From NCBI GenBank assembly GCA_903889735.1, contig CAISYQ010000263.1:1-14592 (forward strand): a stretch of 14,592 bases of DNA, given 5' to 3'. The notes beneath the pieces are model-generated. The model searched no databases and was not told the origin of the DNA. It was given only the letters and a program-made list of their open reading frames with translations. A program made the position numbers and the translations under genes. The stretch is from an uncultured Methylibium sp. (GTDB taxonomy: Bacteria; Pseudomonadota; Gammaproteobacteria; Burkholderiales; Burkholderiaceae_C). Every line of letters starts with the position of its first letter. The stretch's first letter is position 1. This document shows, in pieces, positions 1-14,592 of the stretch.

Positions 1-1779
1 GCGTTGCTCGACGCTCAACACCTCCGAGAAGCCCGGCATCCCGCCCTCGGGCCGACCATGGCTCAGCCACCAAAAGATGTCGCCGGCCGTGTGCAGGGCG
101 GTGTGGGGTTCGGTCAGGTTGGCGGCCTTGCGGGGCAGGCCTGTGGCGGCCGGGCCGTCGCCTCGGCCACCCTCGCCGTGGCAGCGGGTGCAATGCTGCT
201 GGAAGAGCGCGGCGCCCTGGGCCACCGACACCGCGGTGTAGCCGGTGTCGGTGCGCCGGTAGGTGTCGGGGTAGGCCTCGCCGCTGACCATGGCCAGTCC
301 GGTGACCAGACCCGTCACCGCGACCAGACCCGCCAAGACCATGCGCCGCCGCAGGCCGCTCTCCAGGGCGGGGCTTGGAGCACCCGCCTGCCCCACGGGC
401 GGAGCCGCTTCATACGGCCGCCGCGAGAGGCGCCACAAGGCGTGCAGCAGCACGGCGGTCGCCCCCAGGGCGATCAGCGCGGCCAGCCCGACAGTGACAG
501 CGACCCCTGGCAACTCCCAGCTCGCCGCGAGCGACCACCGAAAGGGCAGCGGCCAGACCCACTGGTCGTGGGCGGCGGGCAGGGTCTCGGTCAAGCGCGC
601 CGCGAGCAGCAGGATGAGCAGCACGAGGCCAAGCTCCACGCCGAGCCAGCGGGTCATCGACCGCCAGGGGCCGGCCTCGGCGGCCGCGGGTGACACGGCA
701 GCCGGCGAGGCCGGCGAAGCGGCGGCCGGCCAGACCGCCGCAGCGGTGAGCAACGGCGTACCGTGAGACTCTGCAGATGAGGGTCTCGCCAGTTCGGCGA
801 CCGCCGAGGCCGTGCCAGCGCCTGGGCCCATGCGCGGCATCCAGACCCAGCGCGCTCGGGCGGCGATCAGGAGCACCGGGATCAAGAGCAGGACCTTGGC
901 CAGCACCAGCTGGCCGTAGTCGCTGCCCAGCAGGGGCGCCACGCTGCGCTCCAGCAGCGTGGTCAGGCCGCCGAGCAGGTCATCGGCCCGGGTGGGCCAG
1001 TCGCGGGGCGCACCCGACTGCAGGTAGGCGGTCACCGTCCCGGTCAGCACCAGCAAGACCACCGATGCGGCGGCCAAGGCCGAGAAGCGGCGCAGCAGGA
1101 CAGCGAGACTTTGGCGGAAGGCCCGCTGCAACGCGAGCGACTCCCCTGGAACGGGATGCCGGGCCAGCCACAGCGCGTACAGCAAGGCCGGCAGGCCGCC
1201 CGCCCAGAACCCCGCGGCCAGGGTGTGCAGCAACTGGCTGAGCCCCGTCAACCACAGCGGCTCGGTCGCCGCGGCATGACCAGCCAGCACGCCGGCGGCG
1301 TTGAAGGTCAGCGCCAGGGCCAGGAGCGGCGCGAGGAGACCGTCATGCCACCCGGAGCCCGGGGGTCGTGGTGGCTGTGCTCCGGTACCCGGTGGTTCTG
1401 ATCCCCGCCGGGCGCCAGGCGGTTTCCGCCCGGTCCTGCCGGCGCCAAGAAGCATCAGCAGCATCGCCAGGGCCAGCGCCTGCCGGCATTGCCAGACCAG
1501 GCCGTAGCGGGTGTCCGCCAGCAGGCGCTCCCACTCGCCCCACTGCAGCAGGGCCTCGGCGCGACCCGTGACCGACACGAGCTGCCAGCCCAGCAGGGCC
1601 GTGTGGGCCAGCAGCACCGCGCCGGTGAGCCAGGGCGCGGCCGCCATCAGCCCGCGCCGCCAGCGGGCCAGGCCCTGCGTTCGCTCGCCACCCGCGAGCG
1701 ACATCAGGGCCAGGCCGCCCAGCAAGACCAGGCCACCGGTCCCCAGCAGCCAACGCAGCGCGGTCGCGAACGCCTCCAT
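1..1779 (-). CDS. copD: CopD-family copper membrane protein fused to a C-terminal class-I cytochrome c domain (3' end beyond left edge of window)
   Basis: Not in the ORF track because there is no stop in the window. Hand translation of the minus strand from ATG 1779..1777 gives 593 stop-free codons down to nt 1. The product reads MEAFATALRWLLGTGGLVLLGGLALMSL...AGVLAGHAAATEPLWLTGLSQLLHTLAAGFWAGGLPALLYALW (CopD-like GHA / HxLAAxxWxGG helices). Further hydrophobic helices follow, then ...YTAVSVAQGAALFQQHCTRCHGEGGRGDGPAATGLPRKAANLTEPH...FWWLSHGRPEGGMPGFSEVLSVEQR. The CxxCH heme motif lies at nt 192..178 and GGMPGF supplies a candidate axial Met. The ATG abuts the copC stop (TGAATG, 1782..1777). 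Confidence 0.8.
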   Translation of the reverse strand, partial: MEAFATALRWLLGTGGLVLLGGLALMSLAGGERTQGLARWRRGLMAAAPWLTGAVLLAHTALLGWQLVSVTGRAEALLQWGEWERLLADTRYGLVWQCRQALALAMLLMLLGAGRTGRKPPGARRGSEPPGTGAQPPRPPGSGWHDGLLAPLLALALTFNAAGVLAGHAAATEPLWLTGLSQLLHTLAAGFWAGGLPALLYALWLARHPVPGESLALQRAFRQSLAVLLRRFSALAAASVVLLVLTGTVTAYLQSGAPRDWPTRADDLLGGLTTLLERSVAPLLGSDYGQLVLAKVLLLIPVLLIAARARWVWMPRMGPGAGTASAVAELARPSSAESHGTPLLTAAAVWPAAASPASPAAVSPAAAEAGPWRSMTRWLGVELGLVLLILLLAARLTETLPAAHDQWVWPLPFRWSLAASWELPGVAVTVGLAALIALGATAVLLHALWRLSRRPYEAAPPVGQAGAPSPALESGLRRRMVLAGLVAVTGLVTGLAMVSGEAYPDTYRRTDTGYTAVSVAQGAALFQQHCTRCHGEGGRGDGPAATGLPRKAANLTEPHTALHTAGDIFWWLSHGRPEGGMPGFSEVLSVEQR

Positions 1780-2298
1780 TCAGGGGCTGGGCGCGGACGC
1801 CTTCAGCGTGAAGCTGTAGCCATGGTCGACGGTGTGCCCATCGACCGACAGCACGCGGTACTTCACCATGTAGACCCCCGGCTCCAGGGCGGGGAGTTCG
1901 AGGACGAGCAGCTTGGGATCCGCCGCGTCCACCTTTGCCGCGCCGATGGCGACCGCCCCCTGGCCCTCGCGGGACAGGCTCACGGAGGCATAGGCCGGCT
2001 CCAGCTTTTCGTTGAACCAGAGCCGCAGGCGCTGCGGCGGCTTGGAGAGCGTGGCGCGCCGTGCCGGCTCGGCCTTGACCAGCGCCGCATGGGCCAGGGC
2101 TGTGCCATGGGCGGACAGCGCCAGGAGGATGGCGAAGCCGGAGGTGATCAGGGTTGAGCGGAGGCCCAAGGGGACAACCAGGCGGGCGCAACAGCGGACA
2201 CCCCAGCGGGCCGCATCGCGGAGGGTCCAGCGGACGGTCCGTTCGGCGATCCAGGGGACCGTCCAGGAGGGGCTCGATCGTGGGGTGAAGGGTGTCAT
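1780..2298 (-). CDS. copC: CopC-domain periplasmic copper-binding protein
   Basis: This is the in-frame part of track ORF 1780..2553. The mature part reads HAALVKAEPARRATLSKPPQRLRLWFNEKLEPAYASVSLSREG...GVYMVKYRVLSVDGHTVDHGYSFTLKA. That matches the CopC signature: N-terminal His after ALA|HA cleavage, LxFxExxE, Y.V.Y.V.S.DGH..G.F.F. ATG 2298..2296 overlaps the esterase stop (ATGA). It would give an unusually long 65-aa presequence. An alternative TTG at 2170..2168 would give a canonical signal peptide, MGLRSTLITSGFAILLALSAHGTALA. Confidence 0.85.
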   Translation of the reverse strand: MTPFTPRSSPSWTVPWIAERTVRWTLRDAARWGVRCCARLVVPLGLRSTLITSGFAILLALSAHGTALAHAALVKAEPARRATLSKPPQRLRLWFNEKLEPAYASVSLSREGQGAVAIGAAKVDAADPKLLVLELPALEPGVYMVKYRVLSVDGHTVDHGYSFTLKASAPSP

Positions 2299-3254
2299 GG
2301 GTCTTTCTGGGGAGATGCCGGAACGTTGGGCGGCGCGATCGGATGCGCGGTACCAGGCCGGTGCCCGGTCAGCAGGAAATCGAGCATCCGCCCCTGCAGG
2401 CCCGGCCATTCGTTGTGGCTGCGACGCCCTTCGCAGTAGAGCACCGGCGCGCCGGGCCGGCAGCCTGCGAAGGCCCTGCAACCGTCGGGGTCGGGGGTGG
2501 CTTCGGTGGCCGTCTGGGGGATCGGCTCGGTGCAGCCGTTGCAGGCCGCCCACCAGTTGGCGGCCTCACGGCCCCAGCCGGGGAAAAGCTGGTCCTGGCT
2601 GCCGTGCATGACCATCACCGGCAGGGGCGCTCGGCAGCCCATTTCCCGCAGGTCCTGGGCGTTGAAGCCGGCGGCGCTGACGGCGATCCCGGCGACGCGC
2701 TCGCGGCTCTCGGGCAGCAGGGCCAGGGCGGTGGAGACCGTGGCGCCATCGGAATGCCCGGTGAAGTAGACCTGCTGGGGGTCGATGCACCAGCGCTCGG
2801 CCACGCTCTGCGCCACGGCGCCCAGGGCAACCACGCTGCGGCGCGACATGGGCCGGTGATCGACATAGGCGACGATGAAACCGCGCCCGGTGGCCTCGGC
2901 CGTGAGTTGGGTGAAGCGCTCGCTGCGCTCGGCGCTGGCGGTGGCAGCGGCATAGACCACCAGCAGCGGATGGGCGACATCGGGGTCGAAATTCGCGGGT
3001 GTGCGCACCTGGTAGGAGAAGCGCGGATCGGTGACCGAGGCCGCGATGCCAGCCGGCGGGATCAGCGCCTGGTCGCAGGCCACTTGGCGCGGCTCGGGAT
3101 ACGCGAAGGTCCTGGCCGGTTCCACCGCGTCCGGGGGGCTGCAGGCGCCCAAAGTGGCAACCGAGAGCAGCATCGGCAGCCGGGAGCGCCACCACCCTCC
3201 CTGGCCCTGCAAGGGCCGATCAGCGCCTGGCTTTTTCCGCAGCGCGGCGGGCAC
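2295..3254 (-). CDS. Secreted lipoprotein esterase, PHB-depolymerase/LpqC-type alpha/beta hydrolase family
   Basis: Lipobox LSVATLGAC is present. The nucleophile elbow is FTGHSDGA (GxSxG). MVMHGSQDQ is a candidate acid block. The C-terminal SHNEWPG matches the GHxWPG His block of this family. Cys pairs (AACNGC, GCRAFAGC) are typical of it. The start is uncertain: GVG 3254 is not meant here, the candidates are GTG 3254 (overlaps the upstream gene by 35 nt), TTG 3212 (gives MQGQGGWWRSRLPMLLSVATLGAC, the best-looking signal peptide) or ATG 3173. Confidence 0.8.
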   Translation of the reverse strand: MPAALRKKPGADRPLQGQGGWWRSRLPMLLSVATLGACSPPDAVEPARTFAYPEPRQVACDQALIPPAGIAASVTDPRFSYQVRTPANFDPDVAHPLLVVYAAATASAERSERFTQLTAEATGRGFIVAYVDHRPMSRRSVVALGAVAQSVAERWCIDPQQVYFTGHSDGATVSTALALLPESRERVAGIAVSAAGFNAQDLREMGCRAPLPVMVMHGSQDQLFPGWGREAANWWAACNGCTEPIPQTATEATPDPDGCRAFAGCRPGAPVLYCEGRRSHNEWPGLQGRMLDFLLTGHRPGTAHPIAPPNVPASPQKDP

Positions 3255-3921
3255 GGCCCGAGGCCCCGTAGAGCAGGAAGCCGGCCACCGGCACCAGGAG
3301 CATCAGCAGGTAGCTGCCATAGGGCGTGCGGGGCTCCCCGACGCTGAACGGGAAGCGCGAAACGTACTGCTGCTTCTCGCCCGCGGACACCAGCCCGACA
3401 TAGCGGCCAGGCTGCAGGAAGTTGTGCTCGAGCGGCACGCTGCCCGCCGGGTAGAGCCTGGGCGGCAGGTGGAGCAAGGTGATGGCGTCGAGCGGTCCGG
3501 CCTCGCCGTCTCCCTTGCCAACCTCATTCCCACCGCCTGATCCGGTATCCCGGATGATCCTGACCTCGACCGGCATGGCGCGCAGCGCCTCATCGACCAT
3601 GTCCATCACCACGACGGTGGGTCCGACCTGGGGAATGTCTTCGCAGAATTCCCGGTTGCCGTTGGCCAGAGGCTGGTAGCCCGCGAAATGCATCGAGTAC
3701 GGGCCAACGGTCAGCTTGCACTGGTCTTCGTCCATGCTGAGACCGCCATGGGCGGCAGCCCCCAGGGGCAGCGCCAAGGCGGCGGTCTGCAGCACCACCC
3801 TGAGAAAGCCAGCGGCTGCGCTGCAGATCCGGTCGCCCAGGCGGTGCCGCGCCGCCTTTCGCACGAGGCTTTCGACCCGCCCTGCCCGGACCCCGCTAGG
3901 CACCGTCGTCATGCGGCTCAA
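3220..3921 (-). CDS. Secreted protein with C-terminal TM anchor, PmoD/AmoD-like by position and architecture (putative copper protein)
   Basis: Signal peptide ...LQTAALALPLGAAA|HGGLSMDEDQCKLTVGPYSMHFAGYQPLANGNREFCEDIP. A ~150-aa soluble domain follows, then one C-terminal TM helix (YGSYLLMLLVPVAGFLLYGA) and a basic tail (RARRAAEKARR). The mature N-terminus is His. Two Cys lie 25 residues apart with Met/His between them. The gene sits immediately after pmoB. The start is TTG 3921 (TTGA overlap with the pmoB stop) or ATG 3912. CDS existence ~0.8; the functional call is much weaker. Confidence 0.45.
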   Translation of the reverse strand: MSRMTTVPSGVRAGRVESLVRKAARHRLGDRICSAAAGFLRVVLQTAALALPLGAAAHGGLSMDEDQCKLTVGPYSMHFAGYQPLANGNREFCEDIPQVGPTVVVMDMVDEALRAMPVEVRIIRDTGSGGGNEVGKGDGEAGPLDAITLLHLPPRLYPAGSVPLEHNFLQPGRYVGLVSAGEKQQYVSRFPFSVGEPRTPYGSYLLMLLVPVAGFLLYGASGRARRAAEKARR

Positions 3922-5183
3922 ACGCCCGGCCCTGTCTTGAAGACCGGCACGATCGGCCCGTAGACCTCGGCGACCTGGCGCTTGCCCTCGGGATCGTAGA
4001 AGAAGATCAGTCCGCCGGTGCGGCTGTCCACGTTCGACAGGAAGCTCACCAGCCGCTCCAGCTCCCAGGCGGCGTCGGTGGCGTCGAGCTTGACGATCCG
4101 TGTCTCGCCCGGCTGCAGCGGCGCGTCAGAGCTCAGCACCAAGCCGCTGGCAGGGACCAGCTCCTTGGGGAAGGTGGGTGATACGGCCGCCATCGCGGCA
4201 TCGACCTTGCGGTTCACGAAGCGCAGGCCGGCGGTCGTGAACTCACCGATCTGCAGCGGTTGGCTCGAACGGTTGGTGAACTCCGCGGTGATCCGCATGC
4301 TGCGGCCCGGTACGTCGTACTCGGCACGCTTGAGCTGGATGTCGACCAGCTTGGGCGACTCGGGCAGCGGTGGCGTGTAGACCGAGCCGGCCTGCAGCGG
4401 CACCAACTGCGGGAAGGCCTGGACGGTCTGGCTGTAGCCGTAGATGACGATGCCCAACACCAACACGAACAGGCCTGCCGCGACCTTGTCGTCGGTGGAC
4501 GTGACCAGCAGGTCCTCGCGCCCCTTCTGCAGGGCAACCCAGCGGGGAATGATCAGCGGCCGCCGCAGCCACCACAGAAGCCAAGCCACGCCGATCAGCC
4601 CATAGCCGAATTGCCATAGCTGCACCCGGGCGACGTTGTAGGTCTGGAGATCGTCGATCACGGTGCCGTGCAGGGTGGTGACCGGTGCCTTGAAGTCGGC
4701 CTCGTCGCCGGCGACCTCGATCCAGCTGCCGGGACCGACGATGGCGCCAGCACCTTGCACGTTGAGCACCGGGTGAAGGTGCCAGCGGCCTGGCATGCGG
4801 CCCTTCATCACGATCTTGAAGTCGTAGTCGCGACCGAGCTCGAGGTCGCGGGCCGATTGCTGGGCCGGCATGTCGTTGATGTAGGACTCCACCCGGGTCA
4901 GCACCGCACCCGGCGAGCCGTTGGACAGGAACACCAGCTTGGGCTTGCTGACGGCATCCGGCCAGTCGCTGAGCAGCCGTAATTTCCCTTTCATGGTGAC
5001 CGTCTGGTTGACGTCGAGCTTGTCGGTCGACCAGCTCATGTCATACCAGTGGACGGTGCGGGTACGGATGTAGGGCTCGGTCGCCCGCTCACCATGGGCC
5101 AGTGCAGGCTCGGGCAGCACGGTGAGCAGCAGCGTCAGGAGGGCCAGCGCCCCCAGCAGGGCTTGGCGGAGGAGGCGGCTCAT
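3918..5183 (-). CDS. pmoB: Copper membrane monooxygenase subunit B (PmoB/AmoB family)
   Basis: Internal start of track ORF 3918..5702 at ATG 5183..5181, in an ATGA overlap with the pmoA stop. The product is MSRLLRQALLGALALLTLLLTVLPEPALA|HGERATEPYIRTRTVHWYDMSW...GRWHLHPVLNVQGAGAIVGPGSWIEVAG. Two central TM helices and a C-terminal cupredoxin-like half follow (EFTTAGLRF...GETRIVKLDATDAAWE...GGLIFFYDPEGKRQV). It aligns collinearly with M. capsulatus PmoB as I recall it. The 173 codons upstream in the track ORF are an out-of-frame overlap with pmoA. Confidence 0.95.
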   Translation of the reverse strand: MSRLLRQALLGALALLTLLLTVLPEPALAHGERATEPYIRTRTVHWYDMSWSTDKLDVNQTVTMKGKLRLLSDWPDAVSKPKLVFLSNGSPGAVLTRVESYINDMPAQQSARDLELGRDYDFKIVMKGRMPGRWHLHPVLNVQGAGAIVGPGSWIEVAGDEADFKAPVTTLHGTVIDDLQTYNVARVQLWQFGYGLIGVAWLLWWLRRPLIIPRWVALQKGREDLLVTSTDDKVAAGLFVLVLGIVIYGYSQTVQAFPQLVPLQAGSVYTPPLPESPKLVDIQLKRAEYDVPGRSMRITAEFTNRSSQPLQIGEFTTAGLRFVNRKVDAAMAAVSPTFPKELVPASGLVLSSDAPLQPGETRIVKLDATDAAWELERLVSFLSNVDSRTGGLIFFYDPEGKRQVAEVYGPIVPVFKTGPGV

Positions 5184-6013
5184 GGGGCCACCTCGGCCTT
5201 CGCGCTGGCTGGGGCATCGGCCTTGGCGCTGCTGCCCCCGAAGATCGCTTTGTAGCGGGCCCCGGCCGGAATGAAGCGGGTGCCGCAGGCCGCGATCGCC
5301 ATCCACCAGAACGCGATGTACACGAAGATGCAGATGAAGGCCGAGAAGAAGGCCGAGACCCAGTTGGCGGAGTCTTGGAAGGTCCGGAGCGTTCCGCGCT
5401 CGATGATGCGGATGTACTCGGGCGTGCCCGAGCGCGGGAAGGTGTAGCCGATCAGGTCGGCCAGCGAGGTCATTTGCCCCATGTGTTCGACCGGCTGGAA
5501 ATAGGGTGCGAGGTAGATCCAGTTGCTGGGAAAGAACATCAGACCGTAGACCACACCCCCGAACACCCCCGTCAGCACCCAGCTGCGGGTGAGACACAGG
5601 ATGGCGTCCAGCGCCAGCGCGCCCATCAGGCAGGTGGAGGGCAGGACCAGGCTGATCGGGAAATGCGCCATGCCCTGCCAGCTGTGGTACCGGACGATCC
5701 ACACACCGACCAGGAACAGCAGCAGGCTGGCGGTGGCGCCGATCGGCAGGCGGAACAGGTGCCAGAACAGCCCCTGGAAGGCTGCCGCCATCATCATGGT
5801 CACGATGGGCGTGATCAACACCCAGTACTGGCGGTCCTTCCAGTCGATGAAGAAGTCCCAGTCACCCGCGAACAGCAGGAAACTGATGTGGGTCACGGCC
5901 CAGACCAGGAAGGCCGCGATCACGATGATCATCAGGTCGAAGGTTCTCGACCACTTCGCCACCTGCGGGGACATCCCGGCAACGTCTAGCACCTTCTGGG
6001 AACTGGAAATCAT
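5180..6013 (-). CDS. pmoA: Copper membrane monooxygenase subunit A (PmoA/AmoA family)
   Basis: AGDWDFFIDWKDRQYWVLITPIV and RSGTPEYIRIIERGTLRTF...VSAFFSAF are hallmark PmoA/AmoA blocks. The protein has about 7 hydrophobic helices. It is 277 aa with an Ala/Lys-rich C-terminal tail (GGSSAKADAPASAKAEVAP). There is no obvious SD before ATG 6013. Confidence 0.95.
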   Translation of the reverse strand: MISSSQKVLDVAGMSPQVAKWSRTFDLMIIVIAAFLVWAVTHISFLLFAGDWDFFIDWKDRQYWVLITPIVTMMMAAAFQGLFWHLFRLPIGATASLLLFLVGVWIVRYHSWQGMAHFPISLVLPSTCLMGALALDAILCLTRSWVLTGVFGGVVYGLMFFPSNWIYLAPYFQPVEHMGQMTSLADLIGYTFPRSGTPEYIRIIERGTLRTFQDSANWVSAFFSAFICIFVYIAFWWMAIAACGTRFIPAGARYKAIFGGSSAKADAPASAKAEVAP

Positions 6014-6046
6014 CGGATGCGCTTCAAAGGATTCTTGTGAAGGGGA

Positions 6047-6838
6047 TCACTCAGCGGCGGCTGGCATGGCGGCATCGACCTGTTTGAACAGCTCGGCCAT
6101 GCGCATCAGCACTTGCAGCAACACGCCGCCCAGCGCCAGACCGGTCCAGCCCAGGATGGGGAAGCCCCAGTGCAGCGGGTGGCTGAAGATCTCCTCGGTC
6201 AACCAGAAGGCGTGGCCCCACTCGTTGTAGCCGAGGTTGGGCAGGATCAGCCCTGGGCCGAGCACGGCCATGATCAGCGGCACCGAGAAGGAGTCGGCAA
6301 AGCGCGGGATGCGCGTCATCGCGTAGAGCATGGTGCTGACCCCGAGCACGATGTAGAGCGGCACGCAGGCATAGAACAGCACGATGTGGCTGGGCGTCAG
6401 TGCCGTGTCGCGGATCACCGTCTGGTGCCAGGTGGCATCACCCTCACCGTAGAAGCTGGCCACCCACAGGAAGGAGAAGGTGTAGACGATGAACCAGGCG
6501 ACCAGGTTGAAGTGCCGACGCAGCTCGGTCTCGGGCGACAGGCGGTCCATGTGCTTGTCCCGGCTCATCCACAGGTAGAGCCACATCACGATGCCGGTGC
6601 CGAAGATCAGCGGCACCTCCAGCTTGAAGAGCGTCACCCAGTGGGTCGCGAATTCCGGCGTGGTGGAGTCCAGGCCGTACTTGAAGGCGAAGGCCTGCTG
6701 GTAGAAGCGCAGCCCCACATAGATGGCCATCAGCACGCCCCAACCGATCGCCACCGGGGCGACGTTGAACATCTTGCGTTCCTTGGGGGCGACCGCTGCG
6801 CGGGGCAGCAGGTTTGGGGAAGCCGCTTGGGTCAGCAT
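6047..6838 (-). CDS. pmoC: Copper membrane monooxygenase subunit C (PmoC/AmoC family)
   Basis: FYGEGDATWHQTVIRDTALTPSHIVLFY and LPNLGYNEWGHAFWLTEEIFSHPLHWGF are hallmark PmoC blocks. I chose ATG 6838..6836 (M29 of track ORF 6047..6922). It is preceded by the SD AGGAGA (revcomp of 6845..6850) at 6-nt spacing. The upstream 28 codons look non-coding. Confidence 0.95.
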   Translation of the reverse strand: MLTQAASPNLLPRAAVAPKERKMFNVAPVAIGWGVLMAIYVGLRFYQQAFAFKYGLDSTTPEFATHWVTLFKLEVPLIFGTGIVMWLYLWMSRDKHMDRLSPETELRRHFNLVAWFIVYTFSFLWVASFYGEGDATWHQTVIRDTALTPSHIVLFYACVPLYIVLGVSTMLYAMTRIPRFADSFSVPLIMAVLGPGLILPNLGYNEWGHAFWLTEEIFSHPLHWGFPILGWTGLALGGVLLQVLMRMAELFKQVDAAMPAAAE

Positions 6839-7100
6839 GGTCGTTCTCCTGAGTGACGATGAGGAACAGATCGGGGTCGTGGGGGGATCGTCAGCACAGG
6901 CGATGACGACTCCCAAAACCAATGCCCTTCAACAACGACCGCCAACAAGGGCGAGGCGTTGCCAAGGCGATCCACAGTGTTGCACAGCAACCGCACCCGG
7001 AGAACGGGTATTCACCCCCATAGATGCCGACCGAGGGTGGGCACCCTCCCCTACCCGCCGCCTGAAGACGGGGTTCCGCACACCCGCTGTCAGGCGGGTG
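6839..7100 (-). promoter_or_regulatory. pmoC promoter plus structured 5' leader (exact promoter not identified)
   Basis: 262-nt non-coding gap, less GC-rich than the flanks, ending in a strong SD. Several short inverted repeats are present. TGACGAT (6854..6860), ATCGTCA (6887..6893) and TGACGA (6904..6909) could form alternative hairpins. Others are GTTGC-ACA-GCAAC (6979..6991), ACCCG-GAGAA-CGGGT (6995..7009) and GAGGGT-GGGC-ACCCTC (7033..7048). I found no convincing -35/-10 pair by eye. Confidence 0.4.
7081..7100 (-). terminator. Stem-loop directly after the thioesterase-GNAT stop; weak candidate terminator or insulator
   Basis: CACCCGC-tgtcag-GCGGGTG forms a 7-bp GC-rich stem with a 6-nt loop. 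It abuts the stop codon at 7103..7101. No U-tract follows on the minus strand (…GCGGGUG UGCGGAACCCC), so it is not a canonical intrinsic terminator. Confidence 0.25.
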
Positions 7101-7964
7101 TCAAAGCGTCTGCGCCATGGCCTGGTGCGGCAGACCGGCCTCCTGGAACGCCGCCCCGATCGCTGCAAAGCCGTGCCGGGCGTAGAAGCCCACGGCCGAG
7201 GCCTGGGCGTGGAGCACCACCTCGCGGTCCTCACGAGCGCGGGCGGCGGTCAGCAAGGCGTCGAGCACCGCCCTGCCCGCCCCGGCGCCACGCAGCAGGG
7301 AGCAGGTCGCCATGCGGCCGACCTTGGAGACCCCAGACCTGACCGCCACCAGCCTCCCGCAGGCCAGAGGCAGGCCCAGGCGGTTGAAGGCCACGGCATG
7401 CACCGCTCCGGCGTCGGCATCGTCCGTGAGCAGGTCGGCGGCGATGCCCTGCTCCACCACGAACACCTCCTGCCGGATCGCAGTCGATGCGCCGGCCCAC
7501 TCGGACCAAGCCCCGACGCTCACCTCGAGCATGGGCTCGCCCGCCTCGAAGCCCAGGAGCAGTGCGCGCAGCCCGGCAGGCACAGGCTGGGGCGTCTGGG
7601 CCGTGGCGTCGGCGAATACGTAGACCAACTCGCCACTGACCAGCAGACGCTCCTGCCGGAAGACGGCGCCGCGCAGGAGGATGGAGCTGTTGCCGATCCG
7701 CTCGCAGCGCACGCCGATCTCCAACGTCTCGTCGAAGCGCGCCGAGGCGTGGTACTCGAGCGTGGCCTTGCGCACGAAGAGGTCGCCGCCGAAATGCTGC
7801 AGCGTGGCCTCATAGGGCAGCGCCATCGCCCGCCACCAGCCCGCCACGGCGGTGTCCAGGTACATCAGGTAATGACCGTTGAAGACGATGCGCTGCAGGT
7901 CAACCTCGGCCCAGCGCACACGCAGCCTCTCGAGGTGGCGGAAATGGCCTCGCTCCAGATCCAT
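7101..7964 (-). CDS. Fusion protein: N-terminal YbgC/4HBT-type hotdog acyl-CoA thioesterase plus C-terminal GNAT N-acetyltransferase
   Basis: ATG 7964..7962 is preceded by AAGGAGG (revcomp of 7972..7978) at 7-nt spacing. The track ORF extends to 8078 but that part looks non-coding. The N-terminal half reads LRVRWAEVDLQRIVFNGHYLMYLDTAVAGWW...IGNSSILL (4HBT/YbgC pattern with the Asp). The C-terminal half reads IRQEVFVVEQG...AVHAVAF...GRLV...KVGRMATCSLLRGAGAGRAVLDALL...LHAQASAVGFYARHGF (GNAT motif A, R/Q-x-x-G-x-G/A). Confidence 0.85.
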   Translation of the reverse strand: MDLERGHFRHLERLRVRWAEVDLQRIVFNGHYLMYLDTAVAGWWRAMALPYEATLQHFGGDLFVRKATLEYHASARFDETLEIGVRCERIGNSSILLRGAVFRQERLLVSGELVYVFADATAQTPQPVPAGLRALLLGFEAGEPMLEVSVGAWSEWAGASTAIRQEVFVVEQGIAADLLTDDADAGAVHAVAFNRLGLPLACGRLVAVRSGVSKVGRMATCSLLRGAGAGRAVLDALLTAARAREDREVVLHAQASAVGFYARHGFAAIGAAFQEAGLPHQAMAQTL

Positions 7965-8076
7965 GGCTCGCCCTCCTTTGGCAGCTTGGGGTGGCGCCGG
8001 CAACGTGGCGCGCCGGCTGGGGGCAAGCATACTGGCGCTCCATCCCTCCGCAACCTGCCTCCGAAGCCCGCCCACC
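7965..8076. promoter_or_regulatory. Divergent intergenic region between the thioesterase-GNAT gene and the alcohol dehydrogenase gene
   Basis: 112-nt gap between divergently oriented starts. It contains a near-direct repeat, GTGGCGCCGGC (7991..8001) and GTGGCGCGCCGGC (8006..8018), and a CATACT -10-like hexamer (8028..8033). No clear -35 element and no SD precede ATG 8077. Confidence 0.25.
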
Positions 8077-9213
8077 ATGCCGCAGATTTTCTACATTACC
8101 CAGATCCAGTTCGATTTCGGCGCGGTCCGCGAGCTGGCGGCCGAGTGCGCGCGCGTCGGCATCCACCGCCCGCTTGTCATCACCGACGCCGGCGTGCGGG
8201 CCGCGGGCGTGCTGCAGCCGGCGCTCAAAGCCCTGCGCGAACTGCCGGTGGCGGTGTTTGACGGTACGCCCTCCAACCCCACCGAGGCGGCCGTGCGCGC
8301 TGCCCGGGCGGTCTGGGACGCCCACCGCGCCGACGGCCTGGTGGCGGTGGGTGGCGGCTCCAGCATCGATCTCGCCAAGGCCCTGGCGATCCATGCCACC
8401 CACCCCGGGCCGCTCAAGACCTACGCCACCATCGAGGGCGGCTCCACCCTCATCACCGCGGCGGTCGCCCCGCTGATCGCCGTGCCCACCACCGCCGGGA
8501 CCGGCAGCGAGGTGGCGCGCGGCGCCATCCTCATCGTCGATGACGGCCGCAAGCTGGGATTCCACAGCTGGCACCTGGTGCCGCGCGCGGCCATCTGCGA
8601 TCCAGAACTCACGCTCGGCCTGCCCGCCGGCCTGACGGCGGCCACTGGCATGGATGCGGTGGCCCACTGCATGGAGACCTTTCTCTCGGCCGCCTTCAAC
8701 CCGCCCGCCGACGGCATCGCACTCGATGGCCTGGCCCGAGCCTGGACACACATCGAGCGCGCCACCCGCGACGGCAGCGACCGCGAGGCGCGTCGCCAGA
8801 TGATGAGCGCCTCCATGCAGGGCGCGATGGCCTTCCAGAAAGGCCTGGGCTGCGTGCACAGCCTCAGCCACAGCCTGGGCGGCGTGAACCCGCGCCTGCA
8901 CCACGGCACGCTCAACGCGATGTTCCTGCCGGCGGTGCTGCGTTTCAACGCGCAGGCCGAGAGCGTGCGGGCCGAGAAACGCCTGGAACGCATGGCGCAG
9001 GCCATGGGCCTGGCCTCGGCCGGCGATGTGGCCGTCGCGGTGGCCGACATGAACGCACGCCTGGGCCTGCCCACGGGCTTGGCCGCCCTGGGGGTGGCAC
9101 AGAACGCTTTCGACCACATCGTCGCAGGCGCACTGGCCGATCACTGCCACAAGACCAATCCGCGTGTCGCGGGTGCCGACGACTACCGACAGATGCTGAC
9201 CGAGGCGCTATGA
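8077..9213 (+). CDS. Iron-containing (family III) NAD(P)-dependent alcohol dehydrogenase, 4-hydroxybutyrate-dehydrogenase-like
   Basis: M67 of track ORF 7879..9213. The product starts MPQIFYITQIQFDFGAVRELAAEC. Other blocks are FDGTPSNPTE, VAVGGGSSIDLAKA (GGGSxxDxAK), PLIAVPTTAGTGSEV, and the metal His blocks MDAVAHCMETF and CVHSLSHSLGG...LHHG. The whole length resembles the Cupriavidus Gbd-type enzyme as I recall it. Confidence 0.9.
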   Translation: MPQIFYITQIQFDFGAVRELAAECARVGIHRPLVITDAGVRAAGVLQPALKALRELPVAVFDGTPSNPTEAAVRAARAVWDAHRADGLVAVGGGSSIDLAKALAIHATHPGPLKTYATIEGGSTLITAAVAPLIAVPTTAGTGSEVARGAILIVDDGRKLGFHSWHLVPRAAICDPELTLGLPAGLTAATGMDAVAHCMETFLSAAFNPPADGIALDGLARAWTHIERATRDGSDREARRQMMSASMQGAMAFQKGLGCVHSLSHSLGGVNPRLHHGTLNAMFLPAVLRFNAQAESVRAEKRLERMAQAMGLASAGDVAVAVADMNARLGLPTGLAALGVAQNAFDHIVAGALADHCHKTNPRVAGADDYRQMLTEAL

Positions 9214-9297: not shown

Positions 9298-10092
9298 ATG
9301 GCCTTCACTCATCTCGCATCCAGATCGGTCCGGACCGCGCTTGTGGCGCTTGCCGGCCTCCTGTCGGTTGCGGCGGCCTCGGCCCAGGAAAACAGCCTGC
9401 TGATCTACTGCGGCATCACCATGGTGAGGCCGATCACCGAGCTGGCGCGCAGTTTCGAGCAGCAGGAAAAGATCAAGATCGACATCTCCCAGGGGGGCTC
9501 CGAAGACCTCTACCGGAGCGTGCGCAAGAGCCGCACGGGCGACCTCTACCTCCCCGGGGAGCCCTCCTACCGCAGCAAGTACCTTGCCGAGGGCCTGCTG
9601 GGCGACGTCAAGGTGGTCGGCTACAACCAGATGGCGATCTTCGTGCCCAAGGGCAACCCGAAGAAGGTGCAGCCCGACCTGAAGGAACTGCTGCGCAAGG
9701 ACCTGGTCCTGACGATCGGCAATGCCGAGAGCGGCAGCGTTGGCCAGGAATCCAAGGCCATACTCGACCGCGCCAACCTGTATCCCAAGGTCGTCTCGCA
9801 GGCCGCCTTCCTGATGCCCGATTCGAGGGCCATCAACCTCGCCCTCAAGCGCGGCGATGCGGATGCGGCGTTGAACTGGCGCGCCACCGCCTTTTTCCCT
9901 GACAACGCCCCCCAGATCGATGTGGTGGATCTCGATCCCCGCATCGCCAAGCCGCAGGCGCTGCTGCTCAACCTGCTCACTTTCTCTCGCAACCCCACAC
10001 TGGCCGCCAAGTTCATGGCCTATGCCGCCTCCGGCGAGGGCCAGGCGGTGTTCCGCAAGTACGGCTTCCTGGACAACAGCCAGGTCCGCTGA
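9298..10092 (+). CDS. Periplasmic type-II substrate-binding protein, ModA/oxyanion-binding-like fold (probable sensor co-receptor)
   Basis: SD AAGGA (9286..9290). Signal peptide MAFTHLASRSVRTALVALAGLLSVAAASA|QE. The pattern LLIYCGITMVRPITELARSFEQQEKIKIDISQGGSEDLYRSV...GDLYLPG resembles ModA-type binding proteins (ModA has AAASL...SFGSSG...DVFISA). However, the canonical anion-binding Ser positions are changed. No ABC permease or ATPase gene follows; a sensor kinase does. Confidence 0.8.
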   Translation: MAFTHLASRSVRTALVALAGLLSVAAASAQENSLLIYCGITMVRPITELARSFEQQEKIKIDISQGGSEDLYRSVRKSRTGDLYLPGEPSYRSKYLAEGLLGDVKVVGYNQMAIFVPKGNPKKVQPDLKELLRKDLVLTIGNAESGSVGQESKAILDRANLYPKVVSQAAFLMPDSRAINLALKRGDADAALNWRATAFFPDNAPQIDVVDLDPRIAKPQALLLNLLTFSRNPTLAAKFMAYAASGEGQAVFRKYGFLDNSQVR

Positions 10093-10107
10093 CCCGCGGT
10101 CGACGCC

Positions 10108-12420
10108 GTGCACCGCCCGATCGAGACCGCGACCGCCTCGGGCAAGGCCGGACTGGCCCTGCTCGGCCTGTTCCTGGCGGGTTTCTCGGCCATCGTCGGT
10201 GTCAGCGTGGTGATCTCCAGCCTGATCGCGGACCTGGACCGCCAGAGCGCCAACGAGCGCGCGCGGCTGGTCGTCGGTGAGGAGATCGTGACCACGGTGC
10301 ACCAGATCGAACGGCTGTTCTACCAGCTGCCTCAGCTCACGAGCGAGGCCAGCCGAGCGCGACCGCTCAAGCAGATCGCCGAGGCCACGCAACACATCGA
10401 CGATGCCCTGGCCGTGCTCCAGCGCGGAGGCCGGCTGCAGCGGCGGGTGGCGCTCAATGTCTATGGCCTCGACGAGATGGTCAGCGAGGTGATCTACCGA
10501 CCCTCGGGCGACGCGGAGAAGGTCGTGCTGGAGGTCATCGAGATCGCGCCGCATGCGGACCAGATCAGGGAGCGCATGGTGGTGCTGCAAGACCTGCTCC
10601 AGGCCCGCGATGCCTGCGCCGACGCCGATCTGGCCTGCCGGCAGTCGGTGGGCGAGCGCCTGAGTGTCTACTTCAAGGTCACGCCGGCATTCTTCTTTCG
10701 CCTCGGCGAAAACGCCAACCGCCTGCTGTTCGAGAGCAACAAGCTGCTGACCGATCTGGAGCAGCGGCTGGCCGAGCAGCAACGCAACCTGCGCCGCACC
10801 CAGCTCGGCGTGGTGATCCTGGTGGTGTTCTCGGTCATGGGGCTGAGCGGCTTTTTCCTGCGCCGCATCAACGCCGCACATGGCCAGATGCAGAGGGCCA
10901 TGGAACAGGCCGAGGCAGCCAACCGGGCGAAGTCAGAGTTCCTCGCCAACATGAGCCATGAGATCCGCACGCCGATGAACGCCATCCTGGGCTTCGCGCA
11001 GCTCATGCAGGAATCCGAGCTCCCCAAGCGCCAGCGCGCCCATCTTGACAGCGTGCAGAGAGCGGCTCGCGCGTTGCTGCGCATCCTCAACGACATCCTT
11101 GACTACTCCAAGATCGAGGCCGGCCGCCTGGATCTGGAGGTGGCGCCCTTCGACCTGCCCGAGCTGCTGGCCGGCGTGGAGGACCTGTTCTCCTTCCAGG
11201 TCTCGGACAAGGGGTTGCGGCTCGAGGTCCGCATCGATCCCACGCTGCCAAGTGCCCTGCTCGGCGACGCCACGCGCCTGCGGCAGGTGCTCGTCAATTT
11301 GGTGGGCAATGCGCTGAAGTTCACCGAATCCGGCGGCATCCGGGTCGACATCGAGCGCGGCCCGCAGGAGGGTGCCGACCTGGCGCTGGCGGTGGCCGTG
11401 CAGGACACCGGCATCGGCATGAGCGCCGAGCAGCTGGCCCGCATCTTCTCGGCCTTCTCCCAGGCCGACACCTCGATCACGCGGCGCTTTGGCGGCACCG
11501 GGCTGGGGCTCTCGATCTCCAGCCAGTTGGTTGCCCTGATGGGGGGCCAGCTCTCGGCGGACAGCCAGCCGGGCCGGGGGTCGACCTTCCGCTTCACGGT
11601 CCGGGTGGGCATCGCACCCCACGGCGGACAGGCCGCGCCGGCATCGGCGACGCCCGCCCAGGACGGCAGCGCCTGCCTGGCGCAGGCAGCGCGCCTGAAG
11701 GGCGCCAAGGCCTTGCTGGTGGAGGACATGGAGGCCAACCGCATGCTCCTGACGGCCCTGCTCGAGGGACTGGGCATGGCGGTCACCTCCGCGGTCAACG
11801 GCCGCGAGGCGGTGGAGCGCTGCGCCAGCGAGCGCTTCGACGTCATCCTGATGGATCTGCAGATGCCCGAGATGGACGGCTTTGAGGCCACCCGCCGCAT
11901 CCGGGCCGATCACCCGCAGGACGCGCCACCGGTGATCGCGGTATCGGCCTCGGCCCTGCTGCGCGACCGCCAGGCCTGCCTGGCCGCGGGGATGGTCGAC
12001 CATGTGGCCAAACCCATCGAGCGGGATCGCTTGCTTGCCTCCTTGCTGCAGTGGATTCCGGTGACCGCGGTGGCTGTCGATCCAGGTCCCGCGGCAGAGG
12101 ATGGTGCGCAGGGGGGGGCATCCGCTGACGCAGGCTCCCCGGCCTCACAGCTCGGGGGCCGGGCGCCGATACCGCCGGCGGGACGCGGTACCGACAAGCC
12201 GCTCGACCGGGCCGCGCTCGATCCGCTCCTGGCCGAGCTCGGACCGCTGTTGCAGAACAACCTCATGACGGCCCGACGGGTCGTCGAATCCATCGAGACC
12301 CTGGTCGAGGACACTGCGGTGTCTGGCGCCTTCCAGCCGGTGTCCGACGCCACGGGCAAGCTGCGGTTCAAGGACGCCCTGGCTGCCCTGGCCAGGTTCC
12401 GGGCCGACATGGCCCTCTGA
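10108..12420 (+). CDS. Membrane hybrid sensor histidine kinase (TM - ~190-aa periplasmic helical domain - TM - HisKA - HATPase_c - REC - His-less C-terminal helical tail)
   Basis: GTG start lies 15 nt after the SBP stop. TM1 is GLALLGLFLAGFSAIVGVSVVISSLI. TM2 is LGVVILVVFSVMGLSGFFL. H-box is [15 protein letters not shown] (H284, nt 10957..10959). N/G boxes are VNLVGNALKFT, DTGIGM, GGTGLGLSIS. The REC acceptor is ILMDLQMPEMDG (D583, nt 11854..11856), with KPI present. The last ~80 aa contain no His, so this is not a functional Hpt. Confidence 0.9.
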   Translation: MHRPIETATASGKAGLALLGLFLAGFSAIVGVSVVISSLIADLDRQSANERARLVVGEEIVTTVHQIERLFYQLPQLTSEASRARPLKQIAEATQHIDDALAVLQRGGRLQRRVALNVYGLDEMVSEVIYRPSGDAEKVVLEVIEIAPHADQIRERMVVLQDLLQARDACADADLACRQSVGERLSVYFKVTPAFFFRLGENANRLLFESNKLLTDLEQRLAEQQRNLRRTQLGVVILVVFSVMGLSGFFLRRINAAHGQMQRAMEQAEAANRAKSEFLANMSHEIRTPMNAILGFAQLMQESELPKRQRAHLDSVQRAARALLRILNDILDYSKIEAGRLDLEVAPFDLPELLAGVEDLFSFQVSDKGLRLEVRIDPTLPSALLGDATRLRQVLVNLVGNALKFTESGGIRVDIERGPQEGADLALAVAVQDTGIGMSAEQLARIFSAFSQADTSITRRFGGTGLGLSISSQLVALMGGQLSADSQPGRGSTFRFTVRVGIAPHGGQAAPASATPAQDGSACLAQAARLKGAKALLVEDMEANRMLLTALLEGLGMAVTSAVNGREAVERCASERFDVILMDLQMPEMDGFEATRRIRADHPQDAPPVIAVSASALLRDRQACLAAGMVDHVAKPIERDRLLASLLQWIPVTAVAVDPGPAAEDGAQGGASADAGSPASQLGGRAPIPPAGRGTDKPLDRAALDPLLAELGPLLQNNLMTARRVVESIETLVEDTAVSGAFQPVSDATGKLRFKDALAALARFRADMAL

Positions 12421-12432
12421 AGCCTCACCCCC

Positions 12433-14592
12433 ATGCGAAGCCCACCCCTCGTCTTCATCGTCGACGATGTGCCCGACAACATCGCCGTGCTCGGCGAGAC
12501 CCTCGCACCAACCTGCGACGTGCAGTTCGCCACCTCCGGTGCCGAGGGCCTGGCGCTGATCGCCACCAGCCTGCCCGACCTGATCCTGCTCGACGTCATG
12601 ATGCCGGTGATGGACGGCTACCAGGTCTGTGCCGCGCTCAAGAGCAATCCGCTCACCCGGTCGATCCCGGTGATCTTCGTCACCGCCAAGAGCGACCCGG
12701 AGAGCGAGTCAGAGGCGCTGGCCGCGGGCGCCGTCGATTTCGTCCACAAGCCCATCAACCAGCAGGTCGTCAGGGCGCGCGTTCGAATGCAGCTGGATCT
12801 GCAGCAGCAGGCGGCCGATCTGCGCGGTCTCAACGCCGCGCTGGAGCAGAAGGTCGCGCAGCGCACCCAGGCCCTGAGCGAGGCCCTGCAGCATGCCGAG
12901 GACGCTTCGCGGGCCAAATCGGAGTTCCTCGCCAACGTCTCCCACGAGATCCGCACGCCAATGAACGCCATCATCGGCCTGGCCCACCTCACCCTCCAGA
13001 CCGACCTGAACCCGCGGCAGCGCGACTACCTGGGCCGGATCCAGGATTCCGGCCACCACCTGTTGGGCATCATCAACGACATCCTCGACCTCTCCAAGAT
13101 GCAGGCCGGCAAGATGCAGGTGGAGAGCGTGACCTTCCGGCTGGCGCAGGTGCTGGACAACGTCGTGGCCCAGGTGGCTGCGACGGCCGCGCACAAAGGC
13201 CTCGAGCTGCTGCTGAGCCTCGCCCCCGACCTGCCCTCCCAGCTGATGGGCGACCCACTCCGTCTCGGCCAGATCCTGATCAACCTGGCCAACAACGCGG
13301 TCAAGTTCACCGACCACGGCGAGGTGACGCTGCGGGTGGCCCGCGTCACCACCCCTGCCGACGATGAGGCCACCGGCACCGCGGGCAGCGGCAGCCTGCG
13401 GCTGGCGTTCTCGGTCAGCGACACGGGCATCGGGCTGACGCCAGAGCAATGCGGTCGGCTCTTCCGTGATTTCGAGCAGGCCGACACCTCCACCACCCGG
13501 CGCTATGGTGGCACCGGCCTGGGCCTTGCGATCACCGCCCGACTCGCGGCGCTGATGGGTGGTGAGGTCGGGGTGCAGAGCGAACCGGGCGTCGGCTCGA
13601 CCTTCTCGTTCTCGGCCTGGTTCGGTGCCCAGCCCATGGCAAGCGCCGCCGCCCCGGCCTTGCCGCCGGAATTGGCGGGCCGGCGCCTGCTGGTGACCGA
13701 CGACCACGCCGGCGCGCGCGCCGCCGCGGTGGAGATGCTGAACTCGCTGGGCTTCGCCGCTGCGGGGGTGTCCAGCGGGGCCGAGGCGCTGGCCGAGATC
13801 GCGCAGGCCGCTGTCGAGGGCCGACCCTATGCGGCTGTGGTCATCGACAGCCTGATGCCCGGCATGGACGGCATCACCACGGCCAGGGAACTGCGCCGCC
13901 TGCCGCTGGTGCAGCCCCCCGTCCTGCTGACCACCCTCTATGACGAGGAGGCCTTGGGCGACCCGGTGTTGTCCGCGACCATTGACGCGGTCCTGGCCAA
14001 GCCGCTCACCCCGGATGCGCTGGCCCGGGCTCTGCGCCGCCTGTTTCAGGCGGGCGATCGCGAAGCCCCTGCCAGGAACCCGCGCCCGCTCCAGGGGGAG
14101 GGGCTGCCGAGCCGCTTGAAAGGCGCACGCCTGCTGCTGGTCGAGGACAACGAGGTCAACCAGATGGTGGCCGCGGGCATGCTGCGCCTGGAGGGTTTCG
14201 TGGTCGATGTCGTCGGCAACGGCGCCGAGGCGCTCGAGCAGGTCGTGCAGAACGACTATGACGCGGTCCTGATGGACGTGCAGATGCCGGTGATGGACGG
14301 CCTGGAGGCCACCCGGGCGATCCGGCGGCTCTCCAAGGGCCTGCGGCTGCCCATCATCGCGCTCACGGCCAACGCCATGCTAGAAGACCGGCAGGTCTGT
14401 CTGGACGCCGGCATGAATGACTATGTGAGCAAGCCCATCGCACCCGATGCGCTGGCGCAGGTCCTGGGGCGTTGGCTCGAACCGCGGCCTGGAACGACGG
14501 TCAACGGCAGCGCAGTGTCCGCCTGCCTGCGGGAGATCGAGACCCTGCTCTCGGGCGGAGACATCCGCGTGCTCGACGTGATCGACGCCAAC
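12433..14592 (+). CDS. Soluble hybrid histidine kinase: REC - coiled coil - HisKA - HATPase_c - REC - REC - (3' end beyond right edge)
   Basis: Not in the ORF track because it has no stop. ATG 12433 opens 720 stop-free codons to the window end. The product starts [22 protein letters not shown]...[13 protein letters not shown] (D54). The coiled coil is [30 protein letters not shown]-box is [15 protein letters not shown] (H171). ATP-binding boxes are [30 protein letters not shown]2 is [12 protein letters not shown] (D472). REC3 is [12 protein letters not shown] (D615). No TM segment is present. Confidence 0.9.

Follow-up and report, generated by a model that had tools for sequence, protein, structure and literature searches.

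A membrane-tethered PmoD/AmoD-family protein of the AmoD subtype encoded directly after amoB in a copper monooxygenase operon of an uncultured Methylibium sp.

The gene that follows amoB on a contig of an uncultured Methylibium sp. (CAISYQ010000263.1, assembly GCA_903889735.1) encodes a membrane-tethered periplasmic protein of the PmoD/AmoD family, and within this family it belongs to the AmoD subtype. The stretch analysed, here called the window, is the complete 14.6-kb contig (14,592 nucleotides), in which seven minus-strand genes run head to tail from subunit C of a copper-containing membrane monooxygenase (CuMMO) to copD. Taken as a whole, the evidence makes it very likely that this AmoD-type (orf5, Cx8MHxnC) protein is a copper-binding accessory factor of the co-encoded CuMMO. 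Neither the protein nor its operon setting is new in kind. In fact, the operon type has already been catalogued, and such genes have been listed in the CuMMO operons of bacteria that are neither nitrifiers nor methanotrophs (Fisher et al., 2018, PMC6189053, Supplementary Data 2). Work on AmoD itself has been scarce according to a 2026 review of ammonia monooxygenase (PMC13058606).

Membership in the family has been established by sequence, fold and phylogeny. A phmmer search against PDB sequences retrieved PmoD 6CPD (E = 7.4e-19, 71.6 bits, query residues 67-195). The mature protein was also modelled with AlphaFold2 from 132 homologues; the model has a predicted local distance difference test (pLDDT) value of 90.5, with uncertainty only in the Gly-rich loop 128-137 (mature residues 72-75 have pLDDT < 50), and its top Foldseek match is again 6CPD (E 9e-13, TM score 0.87 on the target, rmsd 2.1 Å, 36% identity), the next unrelated matches having E>=4e-4. 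The first cysteine (C1), the histidine H2, the second cysteine (C2) and the A/HG junction (the slash marks the cleavage site) are invariant in 128/128 close homologues. In a wider set of 151 sequences (the query and 150 representatives) the columns of Cys68 and Cys93 hold Cys in 141 and 148 cases, respectively. The protein is 55% identical to AmoD (orf5) of Nitrosospira briensis and 30% identical to AmoE (orf4) of the same bacterium. In a maximum-likelihood tree of 64 homologues, drawn from fetched loci, a deep split separates AmoE from AmoD (SH-aLRT 100), and the window protein falls in the AmoD clade, with a protein from a Sterolibacterium metagenome-assembled genome (MAG) as its sister (support 92). 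This clade includes the AmoD of beta-proteobacterial ammonia-oxidizing bacteria (beta-AOB), AmoD1/D2 of comammox bacteria and the single-copy genes of non-nitrifier CuMMO operons. The gene also occupies the same slot in the gene order as in its relatives and in nitrifiers. The first-pass annotation, which had called the protein PmoD/AmoD-like, is thus borne out.

The same annotation had left room for a new, unrelated family that merely sits in the PmoD slot. Scans of the protein against Pfam and NCBIfam matched no family model, and public records label it a hypothetical protein, both of which would suit such an idea. However, the homology to 6CPD in sequence and fold, the identity to AmoD and the position in the tree rule it out, and it has been rejected as having practically no chance of being correct. 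The missing Pfam and NCBIfam matches are a database gap, not a sign of novelty. Pfam scans of 132 family members gave only sporadic weak matches and no covering family model, and the hypothetical-protein labels exist because no Pfam model covers the PmoD/AmoD family. The absence of a curated family model has been remarked before (Fisher et al., 2018), and Pfam and NCBIfam are still without one for a family of more than 600 clusters (618 at 50% identity). The hypothetical protein can now be named an AmoD/PmoD-family protein of the Cx8MHxnC class, which is routine as annotation.

The subtype is defined by the copper motif. Fisher et al. (2018) sort the PmoDs by the motif that comes after the first Cys. 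In their scheme, Cx7MxHxnC is found in the in-operon PmoD of alpha-methanotrophs and in the AmoE of AOB, Cx8MHxnC is equated with the AmoD of AOB, and the remaining classes are Cx9H, Cx8M and plain CxnC. The only class described there as forming a homodimeric CuA centre is Cx7MxHxnC, with Cys41, Met49 and His51 as ligands. The window protein carries C68-KLTVGPYS-M77-H78-x14-C93, that is, a Cx8MHxnC motif with Ser76 at C1+8, Met77 at C1+9 and His78 at C1+10. The first-pass annotation had described PmoD as building a CuA-like centre from a Cys/Met-containing site; this holds for the Cx7MxHxnC type member of the family but does not of itself extend to the Cx8MHxnC protein of the window.

An interfacial CuA in a copper-induced homodimer, as in PmoD Met49242_1452, would make the window protein an electron-transfer partner of the monooxygenase. 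Its homology to the CuA-forming PmoD, the alignment of Cys68 and His78 with the CuA ligands Cys41 and His51, and the Met adjoining the His are in line with this possibility, as is the cytochrome c domain of the downstream CopD, a hint of a redox link. On the other hand, Met77 comes one residue later than the ligand Met49, whose equivalent position holds Ser76, and adjacent residues in a regular strand should face opposite sides. Judged by its sequence, the protein is placed outside the CuA-forming Cx7MxHxnC subclass by the position of the Met. In addition, all five family members tested by Fisher et al. (2018) bind Cu, and the three classes other than Cx7MxHxnC among them are described without CuA features. 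NeAmoD, for its part, keeps only two of the three CuA ligands (Musiani et al., PMC7584546). An ESMFold2 prediction of the apo homodimer (residues 58-198) gave an ipSAE interface score of 0.00, which lends the dimer no support but hardly counts against it either, given that dimerisation is copper-dependent and the model contains no copper. A CuA-like centre is not supported in the window AmoD, because CuA has been shown only for Cx7MxHxnC proteins and this one is of the Cx8MHxnC class, and we consider the electron-transfer partnership through such a centre unlikely.

Another family trait is the histidine at the mature N-terminus. The first-pass annotation had read this terminus as His (AAA/HGG), and the predicted junction agrees, His58 being the residue directly after the A-x-A site. 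In the set of 151 sequences, 135 have a residue at the column of this His, and 121 of them, spread over the motif classes, carry the His; it is also found in 188/188 AmoD/AmoE homologues from the loci as well as in the window protein; Nitrosospira AmoE likewise has an A/HG N-terminus. Fisher et al. (2018) follow this position under the label 'H1' in their Supplementary Data 2, with Glu in the crystallised PmoD; in their constructs an additional Ser-Met precedes it, and the main-text passages searched in that paper do not discuss H1. The idea that the 6CPD construct had cut off an overlooked N-terminal His was rejected, since H1 had been tracked and the crystallised protein has Glu. Within the monomer, His58 would lie well away from Cys68/His78, judging by the strand order of the model.

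The reading frame is that of a real gene and not a chance open reading frame, because its GC content at third codon positions is 85% (window GC, 69%), it has 1112 homologues at E<=1e-3 after 90% clustering (best, 1e-139), and in a near-identical environmental variant nine of the ten listed coding differences in the mature domain fall in third codon positions. The tenth changes Asp138 to Gly within the variable Gly-rich loop, and the differences in the presequence of this variant are spread over all three codon positions. Besides TTG 3921, the gene could start at ATG 3912 or GTG 3864, among which the Shine-Dalgarno-like context fails to choose; the 230-aa database form of the protein (P0122) starts at ATG 3912. 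Depending on the start, the amoB stop codon (3918-3920) overlaps it (TTG 3921) or precedes it by 5 nt (ATG 3912), and a scan of the operon detected no terminator-like site between genes, no internal terminator and no sigma-70-like promoter. The direct coupling to pmoB noticed in the first-pass annotation is accordingly a property of the sequence.

Hydropathy and the AlphaFold2 model also recover the whole architecture proposed at first, namely a signal peptide, a periplasmic domain (~150 aa as proposed, ~143 aa here), one C-terminal transmembrane helix and a basic tail (Table 1). The hydrophobic core of the presequence has Kyte-Doolittle values above 1.5 at residues 37-57 (15-residue averaging), and no twin-arginine motif was seen in the presequence. 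It is probably of the Sec type, with a cleavage site predicted from hydropathy and from the conserved A-x-A/HG junction; in the work of Fisher et al. (2018), proteomics left PmoD signal peptides undetected. Cys68 (in QCKLTV) and Cys93 (in EFCEDIP) are exactly the two cysteines 25 residues apart that had been described around YSMHF (Met77-His78). In the 6CPD crystal, C2 is disulfide-bonded to C1 (Fisher et al., 2018). At the other end of the model, residues 201-232 form one long helix.

Table 1. Location of the amoD gene, of its protein features and of the neighbouring operon genes in the window, with the RNA word depth over each gene
Feature	Coordinates	Strand	Description or basis	RNA word depth
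amoD/pmoD-family gene	3220..3921	minus	233 aa from TTG 3921; stop 3220-3222	7-12; one contig spans 3314-3896
Presequence, residues 1-57	3751..3921	minus	long basic n-region, hydrophobic core, A-A-A cleavage motif	
Periplasmic cupredoxin-like beta-sandwich domain, His58 to ~Pro200 (~143 aa)	3322..3750	minus	AlphaFold2, Foldseek	
N-terminal candidate metal-ligand cluster His58 (H1), Cys68 (C1), Met77, His78 (H2)	3688..3750	minus	alignment, conservation	
Cys93 (C2, in EFCEDIP), second invariant cysteine	3643..3645	minus	alignment, conservation	
Variable Gly-rich surface loop, residues 128-142	3496..3540	minus	low-confidence model; length differs among homologues	
C-terminal transmembrane helix, residues 201-222	3256..3321	minus	hydropathy; AlphaFold2 helix	
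Cytoplasmic basic tail RARRAAEKARR	3223..3255	minus	translation	
CuMMO subunit C (amoC)	6047..6838	minus	family-model matches	mostly ~55; two of four bins 5 and 12
CuMMO subunit A (amoA)	5180..6013	minus	family-model matches	21-46
amoB/pmoB-type CuMMO subunit B	3918..5183	minus	Pfam PF04744 1e-137; NCBIfam AmoB_BACT 537 bits	8-13
Exported alpha/beta-hydrolase (polyhydroxybutyrate (PHB)-depolymerase-like esterase) between amoD and copC	2295..3254	minus	family-model matches	0-6
copC	1780..2298	minus	PF04234 5e-20	
copD fused to cytochrome c domain	1..1779	minus	runs off contig end	0
Upstream region				~1-3

The protein may instead be a periplasmic copper relay or assembly factor that receives copper from CopC/CopD and, docked on AmoB, fills or repairs the copper sites of the CuMMO, an explanation to which we assign about an even chance. 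Several observations agree with it. The gene order amoD-copC-copD is kept in the clade of the window operon, in beta-AOB and in comammox Nitrospira. Among the representatives, the PmoD domain is found naturally fused to CopC (P0147), to YtkA-like domains (P0204, P0235, P0242, P0256) or to a multicopper oxidase (P0225), and a CopC fusion of Bradyrhizobium ERR11 appears in the Supplementary Data of Fisher et al. (2018). To judge from their domain composition, these fusion partners all point to periplasmic copper handling. The family-wide N-terminal His, moreover, is reminiscent of CopC and PmoB with their His-brace termini.

The docking part of this explanation comes from a three-chain ESMFold2 job with mature AmoB, mature CopC and AmoD 58-198, run on single sequences and with AmoA and AmoC absent. 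The AmoB-AmoD ipSAE was 0.69, 0.69 and 0.70, versus 0.00, 0.00 and 0.01 in the controls; the ipSAE mark used is reached by 55/80 solved complexes and 3/110 mismatched pairs, a calibration which a three-chain job does not resemble. The predicted contact on the AmoD side comprises residues 78, 80, 82, 84, 88-90, 103-114 and 158-165, on one sheet face that includes His78. The AmoB side comprises 297-300 (VPGR), 346-352, 375-381, 388-389, 419 and 421, every one of which belongs to the C-terminal cupredoxin domain (encoded at ~3921-4334). Over the AmoB patch in contact, identity to AOB-like AmoB (12 beta-AOB and two gammaproteobacterial-type loci) is 68%, versus 40% for the rest of the domain, and within the clade of the window the values are 78% and 60%. 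CopC made no confident contact in the three-chain prediction, which does not count as evidence against the relay. That AmoD docks on the C-terminal cupredoxin domain of AmoB would, on these models, have roughly even odds. A conserved docking of AmoD on subunit B would explain why AmoD is 55-60% identical between beta-AOB and the window clade while AmoA/AmoB are only ~40% identical.

Other points have to be set against the copper-binding accessory role and its docking component. The five constructs described by Fisher et al. (2018) include no Cx8MHxnC protein, and the displaced Met77 and the ligand loss in NeAmoD already mentioned bear on copper binding too. The interface residues of AmoD are not enriched in invariant positions (7/20 vs 34% overall). 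The docking was modelled without the neighbouring subunits, from single sequences and in a job unlike those on which the tool was calibrated, and the conservation of the AmoB patch (VPGR, a D-A-x-x-E helix and the C-terminal strand) could reflect intramolecular or AmoA/C contacts and so attract a partner artificially. Furthermore, the literature is without an observed association of PmoD with particulate methane monooxygenase (pMMO).

The proposed mechanism of the accessory factor would begin with Sec export and cleavage at AAA/H, after which the single C-terminal helix would anchor the cupredoxin-like beta-sandwich on the periplasmic side of the inner membrane. Copper would be bound via a surface cluster near the N-terminus made of Cys68, His78, probably Met77, and possibly the free His58 and Cys93, and AmoD would act as a copper-dependent accessory factor for the CuMMO, alongside CopC and CopD::cytochrome c, which are encoded downstream. 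The window AmoD presumably binds copper, because each of the five family members tested in published work does so, and it may well be needed for CuMMO activity, because deletion of pmoD in Methylosinus impairs growth in a copper-dependent manner (Fisher et al., 2018). Whether copper or electrons would pass, and via AmoB docking or by another route, is a speculative matter; copper handling or site maintenance seems somewhat more likely for the AmoD subclass than CuA-type electron transfer. A more specific and rather doubtful proposal, built on the models, is that AmoD-class proteins are not CuA carriers, that their His78 sheet face docks on the AmoB patch while a distinct copper site, possibly with the free His58, loads or services the CuMMO, and that this arrangement is conserved from nitrifiers to alkane-type carriers devoid of hydroxylamine oxidoreductase (HAO). 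The contact of AmoD with subunit B is in any case a specific in silico prediction. The wider interest of the protein lies in that the AmoD subclass is common to nitrifiers, comammox Nitrospira and HAO-less freshwater CuMMO carriers, and has diverged less between these groups than the catalytic subunits have, which bears on the role of PmoD/AmoD.

With regard to the neighbouring genes, the CuMMO scores above the NCBIfam cut-offs for AmoB and AmoC and below that for AmoA. The esterase probably starts further in than the frame listed in Table 1, at a lipoprotein signal (MLLSVATLGAC). An esterase homologue (50-64% identical) directly follows amoD in Sterolibacterium, Bradyrhizobium, Acidovorax and another operon of the same clade, the loci with an esterase in this slot being L004 (8598-9443), L005 (8603-9469), L009, L017, L018 and L077. 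In two gammaproteobacterial-type loci (L035 and L051) a 44-45% identical homologue stands beside copC on the opposite strand. The CopD::cytochrome c fusion is common to Nitrosospira (L002 7186-9273), the Sterolibacterium MAG (L004 10308-12401) and another relative (L006 9064-11073), and the fusions of the first two contain an extra AhpC/TSA (thioredoxin-like) domain. A gene of ~160 aa with no Pfam match recurs beside copC/copD in relatives and in Nitrosospira (L004 9445-9924, L005 9767-10258, L006 11116-11598, L003 9373-9855); in the window it is not present between the esterase gene and copC. Upstream of amoC, a thioesterase-GNAT fusion (7101-8078, minus strand) and a divergent iron alcohol dehydrogenase (7879-9213, plus strand) are found, and beyond the latter (9298-14592, plus strand) come a solute-binding protein of the periplasm and a pair of hybrid histidine kinases.

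The organism or close strains of it are represented in many metagenomes, from freshwater, lake, wetland, aquaculture, shale-gas and aquatic samples, by sequence 95-99% identical to that of the window. Such sequence also occurs in a single freshwater metatranscriptome, the contigs of which lie over positions 1977-6916 of the window. The fall in word depth from amoC to copD (Table 1) looks like operon mRNA and not DNA carry-over, an indication that is supportive only, and the amoD operon is apparently transcribed in situ. What tells against this is that the RNA evidence consists of assembled contigs of an RNA library, with word depths counted along the window, and not of strand-resolved reads.

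The host MAG (3.37 Mb, 95% complete, 544 contigs) carries a single CuMMO operon and a single PmoD homologue, and no 16S rRNA was found in it. A search for HAO-type multihaem proteins (PF13447) gave no match in the host or in two relatives with this operon type, the Sterolibacterium MAG and a Bradyrhizobium, with Nitrosospira multiformis as positive control; the host is thus without HAO and is not a canonical nitrifier. In a tblastn comparison of the operon proteins of the window with 88 fetched loci, the CuMMO of the window forms a clade (subunits C, A and B, or CAB, 62-83% identical) with those of Sterolibacterium, Nevskiaceae (Nevskia, Panacagrimonas, Polycyclovorans), Bradyrhizobium, Acidovorax and Burkholderiales MAGs. 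The layout in this clade is CAB plus a single AmoD, to which the esterase and copC-copD::cyt c are added in several loci. The layout of beta-AOB is CAB-E-D-copC-copD and that of comammox Nitrospira is E-D1-D2-copC-copD. AmoC is ~49% identical between beta-AOB and the window clade, and AmoD is 50-60% identical to nitrifier proteins overall. Within the window clade the order is reversed, with 65-83% for CAB and 54-67% for AmoD. Only two of 15 genomes of the same genus have a PmoD homologue (G009 and G013, 48-53% identity); G013 shows three PmoD matches within 7 kb (L091-L093). The distribution of the operon in the genus is thus patchy, and the operon is probably mobile; its patchiness, together with a nearest relative in another named lineage, suggests horizontal transfer.

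Among known systems, one of the closest in design is the operon of Nitrosospira briensis, amoCAB-orf4-orf5-copC-copD::cyt c. Its AmoD/orf5 (L002 6001-6582, P0113) shares with the window protein an A/HGGLS terminus, the C-x8-M-H...EFCEDIP motif, the RFPFSVG domain end and the C-terminal transmembrane helix, groups with it in one clade of the tree and also has copC and copD::cytochrome c downstream. Unlike in AOB, however, the window operon is without the upstream AmoE paralogue and has an esterase inserted before copC, and its host lacks HAO; the window protein itself has a longer presequence and an inserted Gly-rich loop, and the window AmoA and AmoB share no more than 40-41% identity with their AOB counterparts. 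AmoE/orf4 of beta-AOB and comammox Nitrospira is a paralogue with the same architecture and the same N-terminus, but it has a Cx7MxH motif and is separated from the window protein by the deepest split of the tree. PmoD Met49242_1452 of Methylocystis sp. Rockwell (6CPD) resembles the window protein in fold, in C1/H2/C2, in the plan of signal peptide, soluble domain and transmembrane helix, and in its place in an extended CuMMO operon; it differs in the Met, at C1+8 instead of C1+9, in the crystal Cu ligands Met42 and Met44, which are Lys and Thr in the window protein, and in H1, which is Glu instead of His. Finally, the proteins of Solimonas aquatica and Bradyrhizobium sp. ERR11 (Fisher et al., 2018, Supplementary Data 2) also carry Cx8MHxnC and are encoded after subunit B in 'cabd'/'cabdcd' operons. 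In Solimonas H1 is His, as in the window, and Nevskiaceae and Bradyrhizobium relatives are in the same operon clade. In contrast to these, the window lineage is uncultured and its nearest operon is that of the Sterolibacterium MAG (CAB 79%, AmoD 67% identical); and whereas the PmoD of Bradyrhizobium ERR11 is fused to CopC, the CopC of the window is encoded by a separate gene.

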